From the sequence record KJ997912.1: a DNA stretch of 5,386 nucleotides; one strand, written 5' to 3'. This DNA is from Enterobacteria phage MED1. Within the stretch, counting starts at the first letter, position 1. Each line of letters begins with the position of its first letter. The translations under genes and the position numbers were made by a program. Below, piece after piece: positions 222 to 5,386 of this stretch. The notes beneath the pieces are model-generated. The model was not told the origin of the DNA. It saw only the letters and a list, made by a program, of their open reading frames with translations, and did not search any database.

Positions 222-393
222 TGCGTTGGATGAGGAGAAGTGGCTCAATATGCTTGGCACGTTCGTTAAGGACTGGTTTAGATATGAGTCACATTTTGTT
301 CACGGTAGAGATTCTCTTGTTGACATTTTAAAAGAGCGCGGATTATTATCTGAATCCGATGTAGTTCAACCATTAATAGGTAAAAAATCATGA
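133..393 (+). CDS. C: Protein C (86 aa; DNA maturation, switch from RF replication to ssDNA synthesis/packaging)
   Basis: ATG 133-135 (ATGA overlap with the A stop) to TGA 391-393 (ATGA overlap with the D start). The ORF track starts at 115, but that codon is GTG; the canonical start is the ATG at 133 ([11 protein letters not shown]...). Confidence 0.9.
320..358 (+). promoter_or_regulatory. Promoter pD (sigma70-type) inside gene C, driving the D-E-J-F-G-H late transcript
   Basis: -35 TTGACA at 320-325, 18-bp spacer, -10 TATTAT at 344-349; expected transcription start about 356-358, consistent with the known pD position in phiX174. Confidence 0.6.
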
Positions 394-848
394 GTCAAGT
401 TACTGAACAATCTGTACGTTTCCAAACCGCGCTGGCTTCTATCAAGCTGATTCAGGCTTCTGCTGTTCTGGATTTAACCGAAGATGATTTCGATTTTCTG
501 ACGAGTAATAAAGTTTGGATTGCTACTGACCGTTCTCGCGCTCGTCGCTGTGTAGAGGCTTGCGTCTATGGTACATTGGACTTTGTGGGATACCCTCGCT
601 TTCCTGCTCCTGTTGAGTTTATTGCTGCCGTCATTGCTTATTATGTTCATCCCGTCAACATTCAAACGGCCTGTCTCATCATGGAAGGCGCTGAGTTTAC
701 GGAAAACATTATTAATGGCGTCGAGCGTCCGGTTAAGGCCGCTGAGCTGTTCGCGTTTACCCTGCGTGTACGCGCAGGAAACACTGACGTTCTTACTGAC
801 GCAGAAGAGAACGTTCGCCAAAAATTACGCGCAGAAGGAGTGATGTAA
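390..848 (+). CDS. D: External scaffolding protein D (152 aa)
   Basis: ORF 390..848; translation [22 protein letters not shown]... is, as far as I can recall, identical to phiX174 D; start overlaps the C stop (ATGA), stop overlaps the J start (TAATG). Confidence 0.95.
   Translation: MSQVTEQSVRFQTALASIKLIQASAVLDLTEDDFDFLTSNKVWIATDRSRARRCVEACVYGTLDFVGYPRFPAPVEFIAAVIAYYVHPVNIQTACLIMEGAEFTENIINGVERPVKAAELFAFTLRVRAGNTDVLTDAEENVRQKLRAEGVM
568..843 (+). CDS. E: Lysis protein E (91 aa; MraY inhibitor), fully embedded in gene D in the +1 frame
   Basis: ATG 568 with AGAGG at 554-558 upstream; translation MVHWTLWDTLAFLLLLSLLLPSLLIMFIPSTFKRP... matches the phiX174 E N-terminal transmembrane domain including the LLLPSLL proline; the C-terminal half carries several substitutions versus the reference as recalled. 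Confidence 0.9.
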   Translation: MVHWTLWDTLAFLLLLSLLLPSLLIMFIPSTFKRPVSSWKALSLRKTLLMASSVRLRPLSCSRLPCVYAQETLTFLLTQKRTFAKNYAQKE

Positions 849-1000: not shown

Positions 1001-2284
1001 ATGTCTAATGTTCAAACTGGCGCACAACGTATGCCGCATGACCTTTCCCATCTTGGCTTCCTTGCTGGTCAGATTGGTCGTCTTATTACCATTTCAACTA
1101 CTCCGGTTATCGCTGGCGACTCCTTCGAAATGGACGTCGTGGGCGCTCTTCGTCTTTCTCCATTGCGTCGTGGCCTTGCTATTGACTCTACTGTAGACAT
1201 TTTTACTTTTTATGTCCCTCATCGTCATGTTTATGGTGAGCAGTGGATTAAGTTTATGAAGGATGGCGTTAAAGCCGCTCCGCTCCCGACCGTTAACACT
1301 ACTGGTAATATTGACCATGCCGCTTTTCTTGGCACGATTAACCCTGATACCAATAAAATTCCTAAGCATTTGTTTCAGGGTTATCTGAATATCTATAACA
1401 ACTATTTTAAAGCGCCGTGGATGCCTGACCGTACCGAGGCTAACCCCAATCAGCTTAATGAAGATGATGCTCGCTATGGTTTCCGTTGCTGCCATCTTAA
1501 AAACATTTGGACTGCTCCGCTTCCTCCTGAGAGTGAGCTTTCTCGCCAAATGACGACTTCTACCACGTCCATTGACATTATGGGTCTGCAAGCTGCTTAT
1601 GCTAATTTGCATACTGACCAAGAACGTGATTACTTCATGCAGCGTTATCGTGATGTTATTTCTTCATTTGGAGGCAAAACTTCTTATGACGCTGACAACC
1701 GTCCTTTACTTGTCATGCGCTCTAATTTCTGGGCATCTGGCTATGATGTTGATGGAACTGACCAAACGTCGTTAGGCCAGTTTTCTGGTCGTGTTCAACA
1801 GACCTATAAGCATTCTGTGCCGCGTTTCTTTGTTCCTGAGCACGGCACTATGTTTACTCTCGCGCTGGTTCGTTTCCCGCCTACGGCGACTAAAGAGATT
1901 CAGTACTTGAATGCTAAAGGTGCTTTGACTTATACCGATATTGCTGGCGACCCTGCTTTGTATGGTAACTTGCCGCCGCGTGAAATTTCTATGAAGGATG
2001 TTTTTCGTTCTGGTGATTCTTCTAAGAAGTTTAAGATTGCCGAGGGTCAATGGTATCGTTATGCGCCTTCTTATGTTTCACCTGCATATCACCTGCTTGA
2101 AGGCTTCCCATTTATTCAGGAACCGCCTTCCGGTGATTTGCAAGAACGCGTACTTATTCGCCATCATGACTATGACCAGTGTTTCCAGTCCGTTCAGTTG
2201 TTGCAGTGGAATAGTCAGGTTAAATTTAATGTGACCGTTTATCGCAATCTGCCGACCACTCGCGATTCAATCATGACTTCGTGA
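1001..2284 (+). CDS. F: Major capsid protein F (427 aa)
   Basis: ORF 1001..2284 with GAGG 7 nt upstream; translation MSN.QTGA.RMPHDLSHLGFLAGQIGRLITISTTPVIAGDSFEMD... is near-identical to phiX174 F with scattered substitutions. Confidence 0.97.
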   Translation: MSNVQTGAQRMPHDLSHLGFLAGQIGRLITISTTPVIAGDSFEMDVVGALRLSPLRRGLAIDSTVDIFTFYVPHRHVYGEQWIKFMKDGVKAAPLPTVNTTGNIDHAAFLGTINPDTNKIPKHLFQGYLNIYNNYFKAPWMPDRTEANPNQLNEDDARYGFRCCHLKNIWTAPLPPESELSRQMTTSTTSIDIMGLQAAYANLHTDQERDYFMQRYRDVISSFGGKTSYDADNRPLLVMRSNFWASGYDVDGTDQTSLGQFSGRVQQTYKHSVPRFFVPEHGTMFTLALVRFPPTATKEIQYLNAKGALTYTDIAGDPALYGNLPPREISMKDVFRSGDSSKKFKIAEGQWYRYAPSYVSPAYHLLEGFPFIQEPPSGDLQERVLIRHHDYDQCFQSVQLLQWNSQVKFNVTVYRNLPTTRDSIMTS

Positions 2285-2315
2285 TAAAAGATTAAGTGTG
2301 AGGTTATAACGCCGA

Positions 2316-2343
2316 AGCGGTAAAAATTTTAATTTTTGCCGCT
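2316..2343 (+). terminator. F-G intergenic long hairpin (terminator TF; core of the PriA / n-prime primosome assembly site used for complementary-strand synthesis)
   Basis: AGCGGTAAAAATT (2316-2328) pairs with AATTTTTGCCGCT (2331-2343), with one G-U wobble; smaller GC hairpins flank it (CCG-AAG-CGG at 2312-2320, GCG-AAG-CGC at about 2359-2367). The F-G intergenic region of phiX174 is the known n-prime recognition site. Confidence 0.5.
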
Positions 2344-2394
2344 GAGGGGTTGACCAAGCGAAGCGCGGTAGGTTTTCTGCTTAGGAGTTTAATC

Positions 2395-2922
2395 ATGTTT
2401 CAGACTTTTATTTCTCGCCATAATTCAAACTTTTTTTCTGATAAGCTGGATCTCCGTTCTGTTACTCCAGCTTCTTCAGCACCTGTTTTACAGACACCTA
2501 AAGCTACATCGTCAACGTTATATTTTAATGAGTTGATGGTTAACGCTGGTAATGGTGGTTTTCTTCATTGCATTCAGATGGACACATCTGTCAACGCCGC
2601 TAATCAGGTTGTTTCTGTTGGTGCTGATATTGCTTTTGATGTCGACCCTAAATTTTTTGCCTGTTTGGTTCGCTTTGAGTCTTCTTCGGTTCCGACTACC
2701 CTCCCGACTGCTTATGATGTTTATCCTTTGGATGGTCGCCATGATGGTGGTTATTATACTGTTAAGGATTGCGTGACTATTGACGTTCTTCCCCGTACGC
2801 CGGGCAATAATGTTTATGTTGGTTTCATGGTTTGGTCTAACTTTACCGGTACTAAATGCCGCGGATTGGTTTCGCTGAATCAGGTTATTAAAGAGATTAT
2901 TTGTCTCCAGCCACTTAAGTGA
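2395..2922 (+). CDS. G: Major spike protein G (175 aa)
   Basis: ATG 2395 with AGGAG at 2383-2387; the ORF track's 2350 start is an in-frame upstream extension without an RBS; translation [18 protein letters not shown]... matches phiX174 G with a few substitutions. Confidence 0.95.
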
Positions 2923-2930
2923 GGTGATTT

Positions 2931-3917
2931 ATGTTTGGTGCTATTGCTGGCGGTATTGCTTCCGCTCTTGCTGGCGGCGCCATGTCTAAATTGTTTGGAG
3001 GCGGTCAAAAAGCCGCCTCCGGTGGCATTCAAGGTGATGTGCTTGCTACCGATAACAATACTGTAGGCATGGGTGACGCTGGTATTAAATCTGCCATTCA
3101 AGGCTCTAATGTTCCTAACCCTGATGAGGCCGCCCCTAATTTTGTTTCTGGTGCTATGGCTAAAGCTGGTAAAGGGCTTCTTGAAGGTACGTTGCAGGCT
3201 GGCACTTCTGCCGTTTCTGATAAGTTTCTTGATTTGGTTGGACTTGGTGGCAAGTCTGCCGCTGATAAAGGAAAGGATACTCGTGATTATCTTGCTGCTG
3301 CATTTCCTGAGCTTAACGCTTGGGAGCGTGCTGGTGCTGGTGCTTCCTCTGCTGGTATGGTTGACGCCGGATTTGAGAATCAAAAAGAGCTTACTAAAAT
3401 GCAACTGGACAATCAGAAAGAGATTGCCGAGATGCAAAATGAAACTCAAAAGGAGATTGCTGGCATTCAGTCGGCGACTTCCCGTCAGAATACGAAAGAC
3501 CAAGTATATGCACAAAATGAGATGCTTGCTTATCAACAAAAGGAGTCTACTGCTCGCGTTGCGTCTATTATGGAAAACACCAATCTTTCCAAGCAACAGC
3601 AGGTTTCTGAGATTATGCGCCAGATGCTTATACAGGCTCAAACGGCTGGCCAGTATTTTACTAACGACCAAATCAAAGAGATGACTCGCAAGGTTAGCGC
3701 TGAAGTTGACTTGGTTCATCAACAGACGCAGAATCAGCGGTATGGTTCTTCTCATATTGGTGCTACTGCTAAGGATATTTCTAATGTCGTCACTGATGCT
3801 GCTTCTGGTGTGGTTGATATTTTTCATGGTATTGATAAAGCTGTTGCCGACACTTGGAACAATTTCTGGAAAGACGGTAAAGCTGATGGCATTGGCTCTA
3901 ATTTGTCTAGGAAGTAA
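2931..3917 (+). CDS. H: Minor spike / DNA pilot protein H (328 aa)
   Basis: ORF 2931..3917; RBS GAGGTGA at 2921-2927 overlaps the G stop; Gly-rich N-terminus ([25 protein letters not shown]) and Q/E/K-rich central coiled-coil region typical of phiX174 H. Confidence 0.95.
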
Positions 3918-3926
3918 CCGTCAGGA

Positions 3927-3955
3927 TTGACACCTTTCTAATTGTGTGATTTCAT
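3927..3955 (+). promoter_or_regulatory. Candidate promoter pA in the H-A intergenic region
   Basis: -35 TTGACA at 3927-3932; TG at 3947-3948 followed by a weak -10 TTTCAT at 3950-3955 (extended -10 arrangement, 17-bp spacer). Position agrees with the known pA of phiX174; exact start site not determinable from sequence. Confidence 0.45.
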
Positions 3956-3980
3956 GCCTCCAAACTTTGGAGGCTTTTTT
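3956..3980 (+). terminator. Rho-independent terminator TH: GCCTCCAAA/TTTGGAGGC hairpin followed by a T6 run, immediately before the A start codon
   Basis: Inverted repeat 3956-3964 / 3966-3974, then TTTTTT at 3975-3980; the 3-prime arm contains GGAGG (3969-3973), which also serves as the Shine-Dalgarno sequence of gene A (ATG 3981). Confidence 0.6.
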
Positions 3981-5386
3981 ATGGTTCGTTCGTATTACCC
4001 TTCTGAATGTCACGCTGATTATTTTGACTTTGAGCGTATCGAGGCTCTTAAACCTGCTATCGAGGCCTGTGGCATTTCTACTCTTTCCCAATCTCCGATG
4101 CTTGCCTTCCATAAGCAGATGGATAACCGCATCAAGCTCCTTGAAGAGATTTTGTCATTTCGTATGCAGGGCGTTGAGTTCGATAATGGTGATATGTATG
4201 TCGACGGTCATAAGGCTGCTTCTGATGTTCGTGATGAGTTTGTGTCTGTTACTGAAAAGTTAATGGATGAATTGGCACAATGTTACAACGTGCTCCCCCA
4301 ACTTGATATTAATAACACTATAGACCACCGCCCCGAAGGGGACGAAAAATGGTTTTTAGAGAACGAGAAGACGGTTACGCAGTTTTGCCGTAAGCTGGCT
4401 GCTGAACGCCCTCTTAAGGATATTCGAGATGAGTATAATTACCCCAAAAAGAAAGGTATTAAGGATGAGTGTTCAAGATTGTTGGAGGCCTCCACTATGA
4501 AATCGCGTAGAGGCTTTACTATTCAACGTTTGATGAATGCAATGCGTCAGGCTCACGCTGATGGCTGGTTTATCGTTTTTGACACTCTTACGCTGGCTGA
4601 TGACCGCTTAGAGGCGTTTTATGATAATCCCAATGCTTTGCGTGACTATTTTCGTGATATTGGTCGTATGGTTCTTGCTGCCGAGGGTCGTAAAGCTAAT
4701 GACTCACACGCCGACTGCTATCAGTATTTTTGTGTGCCTGAGTATGGTTCAGCTAATGGCCGTCTTCATTTCCATGCGGTGCATTTTATGCGGACACTTC
4801 CTACAGGTAGCGTTGACCCTAATTTTGGTCGTCGGGTACGCAATCGCCGCCAGTTAAATAGCTTGCAAAACACGTGGCCTTATGGTTACAGTATGCCTAT
4901 CGCAGTTCGCTACACGCAGGACGCTTTTTCACGTTCTGGATGGTTGTGGCCTGTTGATGCTAAAGGTGAGCCGCTTAAAGCTACCAGTTACATGGCTGTT
5001 GGCTTCTATGTGGCTAAATACGTTAACAAAAAGTCAGATATGGACCTTGCCGCTAAAGGTCTAGGAGCTAAAGAATGGAACAACTCACTAAAAACCAAGC
5101 TGTCGCTACTTCCCAAGAAATTATTCAGAATCCGAATGAGCCGCAACTTCGGGATGAAAATGCTCACAATGACCAACCTGTCAATGGAATGCTTAATCCA
5201 GCTTACCAAGCTGGGTTACGACGCGACGCCGTTCAACCAGATATTGAAGCAGAACGCAAAAAGAGAGATGAGATTGAGGCTGGCAAAAGTTACTGTAGCC
5301 GACGTTTTGGCGGCGCAACCTGTGACGACAAATCTGCTCAAATTTATGCGCGCTTCGATAAAAATGATTGGCGTGTCCAACCTGCA
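3981..5386 (+). CDS. A: Replication initiator protein A (HUH rolling-circle endonuclease; 513 aa in total), N-terminal about 468 codons; the ORF runs off the window end and finishes at 1..136
   Basis: ATG 3981 preceded by GGAGG; no in-frame stop to position 5386; HUH motif HFHAVH encoded at 4767-4784; catalytic tyrosine pair in VGFYVAKYVNKK (Tyr codons 5007-5009 and 5019-5021, residues 343 and 347). Confidence 0.95.
   Translation, partial: MVRSYYPSECHADYFDFERIEALKPAIEACGISTLSQSPMLAFHKQMDNRIKLLEEILSFRMQGVEFDNGDMYVDGHKAASDVRDEFVSVTEKLMDELAQCYNVLPQLDINNTIDHRPEGDEKWFLENEKTVTQFCRKLAAERPLKDIRDEYNYPKKKGIKDECSRLLEASTMKSRRGFTIQRLMNAMRQAHADGWFIVFDTLTLADDRLEAFYDNPNALRDYFRDIGRMVLAAEGRKANDSHADCYQYFCVPEYGSANGRLHFHAVHFMRTLPTGSVDPNFGRRVRNRRQLNSLQNTWPYGYSMPIAVRYTQDAFSRSGWLWPVDAKGEPLKATSYMAVGFYVAKYVNKKSDMDLAAKGLGAKEWNNSLKTKLSLLPKKLFRIRMSRNFGMKMLTMTNLSMECLIQLTKLGYDATPFNQILKQNAKREMRLRLAKVTVADVLAAQPVTTNLLKFMRASIKMIGVSNL
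4299..4328 (+). other. Viral-strand origin of replication (30-nt A-protein recognition sequence); nick site between G4305 and A4306
   Basis: CAACTTGATATTAATAACACTATAGACCAC at 4299-4328 is the canonical phiX174 ori, located inside gene A at the same coordinates as in the reference. Confidence 0.85.
4497..5386 (+). CDS. A*: A* protein (341 aa in total): internal in-frame translation initiation within gene A; continues to 1..136
   Basis: In-frame ATG at 4497 preceded by GGAGG at 4484-4488 (8-nt spacing); corresponds to the known A* start of phiX174 (MKSRRGF...). Confidence 0.75.
   Translation, partial: MKSRRGFTIQRLMNAMRQAHADGWFIVFDTLTLADDRLEAFYDNPNALRDYFRDIGRMVLAAEGRKANDSHADCYQYFCVPEYGSANGRLHFHAVHFMRTLPTGSVDPNFGRRVRNRRQLNSLQNTWPYGYSMPIAVRYTQDAFSRSGWLWPVDAKGEPLKATSYMAVGFYVAKYVNKKSDMDLAAKGLGAKEWNNSLKTKLSLLPKKLFRIRMSRNFGMKMLTMTNLSMECLIQLTKLGYDATPFNQILKQNAKREMRLRLAKVTVADVLAAQPVTTNLLKFMRASIKMIGVSNL
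4850..4900 (+). promoter_or_regulatory. Approximate location of promoter pB (inside gene A, upstream of B)
   Basis: Weak sigma70-like elements only (TTGCAA at 4863-4868, then TTACAG/TACAGT around 4886-4892); placed mainly from knowledge that pB lies about 190 nt upstream of B in phiX174. Exact hexamers uncertain. Confidence 0.3.
5075..5386 (+). CDS. B: Internal scaffolding protein B (120 aa in total), embedded in gene A in a different frame; continues at 1..51
   Basis: ATG 5075 with AGGAG at 5063-5067; translation MEQLTKNQAVATSQE... with the conserved C-terminus after the wrap; the N-terminal third carries several substitutions versus the reference as recalled. Confidence 0.9.
   Translation, partial: MEQLTKNQAVATSQEIIQNPNEPQLRDENAHNDQPVNGMLNPAYQAGLRRDAVQPDIEAERKKRDEIEAGKSYCSRRFGGATCDDKSAQIYARFDKNDWRVQPA

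Follow-up and report, generated by a model that had tools for sequence, protein, structure and literature searches.

Gene D of Enterobacteria phage MED1 differs from that of phiX174 at 27 nucleotides and yet encodes exactly the same protein, while the lysis protein E, read in a second frame through part of the same DNA, has changed at nine residues. We consider it highly probable that what we see here, in a natural isolate, is no more than the usual asymmetric evolution of the phiX174-like D/E overlap. The evidence supports strong purifying selection on D, with the C-terminal half of E drifting on the silent sites of D.

The window that we analyzed is the complete MED1 genome of 5386 nt, that of a phiX174-like microvirus (Sinsheimervirus) whose genes lie at the same coordinates as in the Sanger reference. 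All substitutions were counted against the true phiX174 sequence, J02482; the reference E C-terminus on which an earlier note on this DNA relied proves to have been accurate. MED1 and J02482 differ at 215 positions genome-wide, 27 of them in gene D. The best whole-genome matches in the phage collection are PJNS001 and ID34 at 96.6%, followed by phiX174 at 96.1%, and none is identical to MED1; for the D region alone the nearest relative is ID1, at 97.8%. The MED1 E, F, G and H proteins are deposited as AII27897/99/900/901, with no other exact matches. An artefactual or synthetic origin of the sequence was ruled out, given that these four proteins are exact to the deposited isolate and that the changes private to MED1 look natural. 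For comparison we used a phiX-clade set of 19 genomes (MED1, phiX174, PJNS001 and sixteen wild isolates of the ID, NC and WA series), four outgroups (G4, WA2, ID2 and WA13) for the deeper comparison, and 34 distinct E proteins from three genera of the Bullavirinae, 20 of which are non-phiX.

The features of the region all lie on the plus strand. Gene D, in the ancestral frame, occupies 390-848 and encodes the external scaffolding protein of 152 amino acids, matching Pfam PF02925 with 326 bits (cut-off 25). Gene E, encoding the 91 amino acid lysis protein, is nested within D at 568-843 in the +1 frame; both open reading frames have the coordinates of J02482. The E protein matches PF04517 over residues 35-74 (77.8 bits, cut-off 25, E = 5.6e-22) and PDB 8G02 chain B, 'Lysis protein E' (4.7e-48); it is exact to MED1 gpE AII27897.1 and identical to phiX174 E at 82/91 positions. 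The PF04517 model, which is labeled 'C terminus', thus covers (at 672-791) the variable cytoplasmic part of the protein and not the conserved lytic membrane helix. A Shine-Dalgarno-like GAGG for E lies at 555-558, inside D codons 56-57 and 9 nt upstream of the ATG at 568, and MED1 differs from phiX174 near this element at 551, 554 and 566. In a preprint on complete mutagenesis of phiX174, a synonymous mutation at D E56 is described as colocalizing with the ribosome binding site of E. At the other end of the overlap the signals are packed within 15 nt (836-850), comprising AGGAG, the Shine-Dalgarno sequence for J (836-840), the E stop TGA (841-843), the D stop TAA (846-848) and the J start ATG (848-850); in J02482 gene J has the annotated coordinates 848-964. 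The annotation of PQ479934.1 (Salmonella phage PJNS001) has 7 genes only, omitting the overlapping E, K, B and A*, although that genome has E as an intact frame of 91 codons.

Within E we distinguish four segments. Residues 1-9 (568-594) form the periplasmic N-terminal tip, which is freely variable and includes codon 3 (574-576), CAT for histidine in MED1. An invariant block of 80 nt follows (594-673), in which both frames are constrained; it corresponds to E residues ~10-35 and D residues ~69-95, and encodes the juxtamembrane part as well as the membrane helix LAFLLLLSLLLPSLLIMFIP, which contains Pro21. Residues 10-32, LAFLLLLSLLLPSLLIMFIPSTF, are the single N-terminal membrane helix containing P21 and are identical to those of phiX174. 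The basic cytoplasmic segment, residues 36-65 (673-762), appears to be under intermediate constraint and carries N43S, K57R and N60S. The labile tail, residues 66-91 with the TGA stop (763-843), carries K81R, C83F, V84A, V88A and R89Q, the E C-terminus of MED1 being KRTFAKNYAQKE.

All 27 substitutions in 390-848 are synonymous in D, leaving the protein 152/152 identical to that of J02482, as the earlier note had proposed. The same note placed them at D third codon positions. This is correct for 22; the remaining five are at the first positions of leucine codons (CTN<->TTR), where they are equally silent. There are 23 transitions and 4 transversions, and with that mixture placed at random the chance that all 27 would be synonymous in D is 2e-14. 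Fifteen of the substitutions lie in the part of D that is not overlapped (390-567) and 12 in the overlap with E.

The relationship between the frames determines what becomes of those twelve. The offset is 568-390 = 178 = 3x59+1, and the first, second and third positions of E codons are respectively the second, third and first positions of D codons. A change at a second codon position always alters the amino acid, and a third-position change that is silent in D, falling as it does on a second position of E, must therefore alter E. Nine of the 12 overlap substitutions fall at E codon position 2, giving R3H in addition to the eight changes listed above; those at 576, 747 and 762 cause no additional change in E. 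Over the 276 nt of the overlap, therefore, 0/92 residues of D and 9/91 of E have changed between MED1 and phiX174 (Fisher p=0.0015). The alteration of the C-terminal half of E, with the tail KRTFAKNYAQKE, had been correctly described beforehand, and what had been overlooked was residue 3 at the N-terminus (R3H, 575-576, CGC->CAT). E residues 4-42 are unchanged, including the LLLPSLL motif with Pro21, and preservation of the transmembrane segment is thus borne out. The alignment contains neither a nonsynonymous change in D nor a change in the E transmembrane helix, R3H being in the periplasmic tip and outside it.

We also examined how the whole phiX clade uses the sites that are silent in D, taking as our measure the fraction of possible D-silent transitions actually seen among the 19 genomes. 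In non-overlapped D (390-567) this is 27/62 = 0.44, a number that, like those that follow, counts variants rather than events that arose independently on a tree; because the 19 genomes group into a few linked haplotypes with mosaic relationships, the p-values are approximate. Over E1-9 (568-594) the usage is 4/10 = 0.40, indistinguishable from D alone (p=1). Over E10-35 (595-672) it falls to 0/26 = 0.00 (p=9.3e-6 compared with D alone). It is 7/31 = 0.23 over E36-65 (673-762; p=0.067) and 8/27 = 0.30 over E66-91 (763-840; p=0.25). A second baseline, synonymous transitions in the non-overlapped genes F, G and H together, is 292/927 = 0.315. When D-silent changes of any kind are considered, 0/59 are used over E10-35 among the 19 phiX-clade genomes.

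The amino acid sequences give the same picture. The variable residues of E among the 19 genomes are 2, 3, 7 and 9 in the tip, none in 10-35, then 36, 43, 51, 57 and 60, and in the tail 74, 78, 81-84, 88 and 89. In the overlap this amounts to 17/91 residues of E and 3/92 of D (p=0.0008). The set contains 5 distinct D proteins and 15 distinct E proteins, D being identical in 14/19 genomes. Between MED1 and the outgroups the identity of E declines along the protein, from 77-94% for E1-35 through 50-87% for E36-65 to 15-62% for E66-91. The best conserved part of D is D60-95 (94-100%, compared with 66-78% for D1-59), and this is the part that overlaps E1-35. Across the 34 distinct E proteins 22/35 positions are invariant in E1-35 and 4/30 in E36-65, and the total length ranges from 75 to 105 amino acids with a tail of variable length.

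Among 18-19 phiX-clade genomes, no other invariant run anywhere in the genome is as long as the block at 594-673 (80 nt). The next longest is 55 nt, and the run around the origin of viral-strand synthesis is 48 nt. Among 18 genomes the runs that follow it in length are 84-138, in the A/K(/C) overlap close to where A stops and C starts; 4941-4990, within gene A and close to the pB transcription start; 4297-4344, around the viral-strand origin (4306); and 5052-5098, around the gene B start (5075) inside gene A.

What holds this block constant? It might be frozen by RNA or DNA structure, by a regulatory signal or by the codon usage of D, rather than by the E helix, and comparative data cannot separate constraint at the level of protein from that of nucleic acid. 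Moreover, in the phiX174 mutagenesis preprint 93/116 detrimental synonymous mutations are left with no mechanistic explanation. Against this, the edges of the block coincide with E residues 10-35, and the adjoining E1-9 is as free as non-overlapped D (4/10). The amino acids of E are nearly invariant here across three genera, which is not true of the neighboring segments of E. The lytic activity reportedly maps to the membrane-spanning region (Buckley and Hayashi, 1986), which is the experimentally defined lytic part of the protein. The toxicity of E resides in its N-terminal region; phiX174 E inhibits MraY and causes lysis, and requires SlyD for stability. We therefore regard a cause other than E as improbable, and continue with the reading in which both proteins hold the block.

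Is selection on the overlap then exerted mainly on D, as was suggested at the outset? For the C-terminal half of E the answer is yes, the usage of D-silent transitions there (7/31 and 8/27) not being significantly below neutral. It is not so over E10-35, where selection on E is apparent (0/26, p=9e-6). A related proposal, that the C-terminus of E is dispensable, holds in part. The tail beyond residue ~65 looks free, but the constraint is graded, since E36-65 is intermediate (p=0.067) and is ordered in PDB 8G02. In that structure of the MraY-E-SlyD (YES) complex E residues 1-65 are resolved and 66-91 are not, and SlyD binds E36-65 as a positively charged helix. The intermediate constraint on E36-65, judged from these variants, is borderline compared with neutral and should be taken as suggestive.

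Net charge is constant at +6 in all 19 genomes, and we considered whether conservation of positive charge in E36-91 might be a signature of SlyD binding. Charge-changing D-silent transitions there are used at 1/8 and the others at 12/47, a difference that is not significant (p=0.66), and this candidate was dropped.

The C-terminal half of E might instead be under positive, diversifying selection, for example tracking variation in host SlyD or MraY. A naive count in the E frame over E36-91 appears to point that way, with transition variants at 13/106=0.123 of nonsynonymous and 5/65=0.077 of synonymous opportunities. This ratio is misleading, because the third positions of E are first positions of D, which are held still by selection on D. 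The rate of D-silent, E-changing variation, 0.23-0.30, is at or below that of D-silent sites outside the overlap (0.32-0.44), so the strong form of asymmetric evolution, in which E is positively selected, is not seen among these genomes, and the data fit a relaxation of constraint. The changes are also mostly conservative transitions (K/R, N/S, V/A, T/M) carried on a few haplotypes. Diversifying selection on E is in our view very unlikely, and we return to near-neutral drift of its C-terminal half.

The comparison also alters the direction in which the differences should be read. The majority alleles of wild E are S43, R57, R81, A84, A88 and Q89, accounting for 6/9 of the residues at which MED1 differs from J02482. 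The N43/K57/K81/C83/V84 haplotype of laboratory phiX174 is otherwise found only in NC51, WA10 and ID22, and R89 is confined to J02482 among the 19 genomes, the corresponding G833A (R89Q) being a known difference among laboratory stocks. Judged by these alleles it is laboratory phiX174 that is the outlier, with a minority E haplotype, and the E of MED1 is near the common wild type. Two other gpE sequences come very close. That of WA4 (AAZ49209) has the identical tail KRTFAKNYAQKE and differs from MED1 at two residues (Arg-3 and A36), and that of PJNS001 has the same C-terminal haplotype and also differs at two (Arg-3 and S83); the nucleotide distance of these two phages from MED1 in D is 10-12. 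The check on MED1 thus leaves a pattern that is real and statistically strong, with its polarity corrected toward the laboratory reference as the unusual haplotype.

Along the genome the closest relative of MED1 shifts, from PJNS001 (about 1-750 and 4251-5250) to NC51 or phiX174 (about 1500-3500), ID45 (about 3250-4000) and ID34/NC11 (about 4000-4500). These shifts, seen in sequence similarity, suggest recombination among phiX-like phages. There are 30 sites private to MED1. Nineteen of these 30 are silent in every frame they touch, and the rest are in F, G and H, together with G575A in E. Ten of the 11 private amino acid changes are in the capsid and spike proteins: A46V, Y103N and T178S in F (positions 1137, 1307 and 1533); V19D, T21R, T48M, A83V and A152G in G (2450, 2455, 2537, 2642 and 2849); and L99F and T234I in H (3227 and 3631). 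Five such changes in the major spike protein G alone may reflect adaptation of host range.

GenBank MZ417522.1 (Mycolicibacterium phage J1, 24,953 nt) contains a whole phiX174-like genome at record positions 169-5631, 96.1% identical to MED1, and is probably chimeric, phiX control DNA having been assembled into it. In IMGVR_UViG_2534682327_000003 (5883 nt) the encoded D protein is 100% identical to that of phiX174 and the E frame is broken upstream of Met26; this would fit the commercial phiX174 am3 (G587A) stock, and the record is a probable contaminant from a sequencing control.

G575A is the sole private substitution of MED1 in 390-848. It is silent in D (T62T) and makes the R3H change in E. 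The neighboring C576T is a common wild allele, CGT being present in ten relatives. Codon 3 of E among the 19 genomes is CGC or CGT, CTC or CTT, or CAT, and His-3 is unique to MED1 in this set. Over the 34 distinct E proteins residue 3 is arginine in 23, histidine in 7 and leucine in 4, and it toggles in all three genera. The possibility that His-3 is the consensus of the subfamily, suggested by the four outgroups together with PDB 8G01, was refuted by wider sampling: of 20 non-phiX E proteins, all distinct, 12 have arginine, 6 histidine and 2 leucine. Residues 3-7 (574-585) read His-Trp-x-x-Trp in MED1, Leu-Trp-x-x-Leu in ID22 and Leu-Trp-x-x-Trp in WA11. Since these histidine and leucine variants occur naturally, Arg-3, and in ID22 the second tryptophan, must be dispensable for a viable phage. 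The most likely reading of these sequences is that G575A would be one more toggle of a weakly constrained, naturally polymorphic site that is silent in D.

The same substitution has a history in the laboratory. G575A/R3H is the pos6 mutation of the Epos class (Bernhardt, Roof and Young, 2002, as tabulated in PMC4825663). With it phiX174 can plate on slyD hosts, and E expressed from a plasmid lyses 'much faster', reportedly because it is synthesized more rapidly (PMC4825663); better translatability of the mRNA has been proposed as the basis. In phiX174 adapted to slyD-deficient hosts the substitutions are G575A, C576T and G624T, of which MED1 has the first two; at the other Epos marker 624 is unchanged and Leu-19 is kept (no L19F, G624T), so that A575 (His-3) is the marker MED1 carries. 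Histidine at position 3 also arose in a laboratory-evolved line (EF380024, isolate 3F90). MED1 and pos6 of phiX174 thus share the same nucleotide at the same position, silent in D and encoding His-3. They differ in that the MED1 codon is CAT, on the wild CGT background, and not CAC, and in eight further differences in E. Furthermore, pos6 is a selected laboratory mutant, whereas the His-3 of MED1 belongs to a natural isolate.

Could His-3 of MED1 be a functional and possibly adaptive natural allele of the Epos type, giving more E synthesis and less or no dependence on SlyD? The exact correspondence with a mutation that lyses much faster from a plasmid, the sharing of G575A and C576T with slyD-adapted phiX174, the recurrence of R3H in 3F90 and the standing of G575A as the only private site in 390-848, unique among 19 genomes, would all be in keeping with this. 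So too would the predicted folding of the E initiation region. A575 reduces the opening energy calculated for 553-580; according to the segment folded, the reduction is 0.2-2.1 kcal/mol when the background is that of phiX174 and 0.02-0.7 kcal/mol when it is that of MED1. The direction is the same in every setting tried and the magnitude varies with the segment chosen. The effect in the MED1 background is, however, small and segment-dependent, and residue 3 toggles between arginine, histidine and leucine in all three genera in the manner of a weakly constrained site. C576T is simply a common wild allele, and with eight other differences from phiX174 E the phenotype may not transfer. On balance we hold an Epos-type function of His-3 to be possible, and entertain it tentatively. 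It is slightly more doubtful again that MED1 might carry, through G575A on a wild background, a natural SlyD-independent lysis allele with raised E expression, and that more broadly the R/H/L toggle at residue 3 might act as a scaffold-neutral dial for the timing of lysis or its dependence on the chaperone. MED1 may derive from an industrial E. coli fermentation that failed; in that case, production strains with altered slyD would provide a plausible selective setting. The natural R3H allele is a small, testable lead on the SlyD dependence of lysis in wild phages; a neutral toggle at residue 3 is nonetheless the reading that we prefer.

We can now set out how the pattern across the overlap would arise. 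The reading frame of D is the ancestral one, that of E having appeared de novo (Fiddes and Godson, 1979; Pavesi, 2006). D is a highly interaction-dense external scaffolding protein in which almost no amino acid change is tolerated, and because of this intolerance divergence in 390-848 is confined to sites silent in D. With the E frame one base downstream of that of D, each D-silent third-position change alters E. The lysis protein absorbs such changes in its periplasmic tip (residues 1-9) and in its cytoplasmic part (36-91, and most freely past residue 65), and would veto those in the membrane helix (10-35), which binds and blocks MraY. The outcome is a constant D, a C-terminal half of E drifting at close to the neutral rate, and a block of 80 nt at 594-673 probably frozen by both frames. 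The pattern of substitution, its statistics and the map of constraint along the sequence are demonstrated by the present comparison; the functional reasons in this scheme, namely the assembly interfaces of D, the blocking of MraY by the E helix and the stabilization of E by SlyD, we infer from the literature. They are consistent with the complete phiX174 mutagenesis preprint, in which D is the least tolerant protein, with 89.4% of mutations detrimental, and E is among the most tolerant, with 26.3% detrimental (of few substitutions affecting a single open reading frame). The resulting map of constraint should be of use when phiX-like genomes are recoded or decompressed, or when E is engineered.

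Finally, we compare MED1 with what is known of this gene pair. The D/E pair of phiX174 has the same coordinates, frame relationship and lengths as that of MED1, and its D is 100% identical, with 27 D-silent differences between them. Among overlapping genes the D/E pair is the founding case, and descriptions of its asymmetric evolution go back to 1978-79. Where overlaps evolve asymmetrically it is the de novo frame that varies more, and the asymmetric ('segregated') model dates to the work of Miyata and Yasunaga (1978) and Fiddes and Godson (1979) on phiX174 and G4 (reviewed in PMC8227390). The phenomenon is thus already known, and MED1 adds only a finer map for the phiX clade, of a free E1-9, a frozen E10-35 and a graded E36-91. 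The model holds that an ancestral frame, D, is conserved, that a de novo frame, E, is variable, and that change is channeled to the third positions of D. MED1 is the same in kind, with E more changed than D over the same nucleotides both in MED1 itself (p=0.0015) and among the 19 genomes (p=0.0008).
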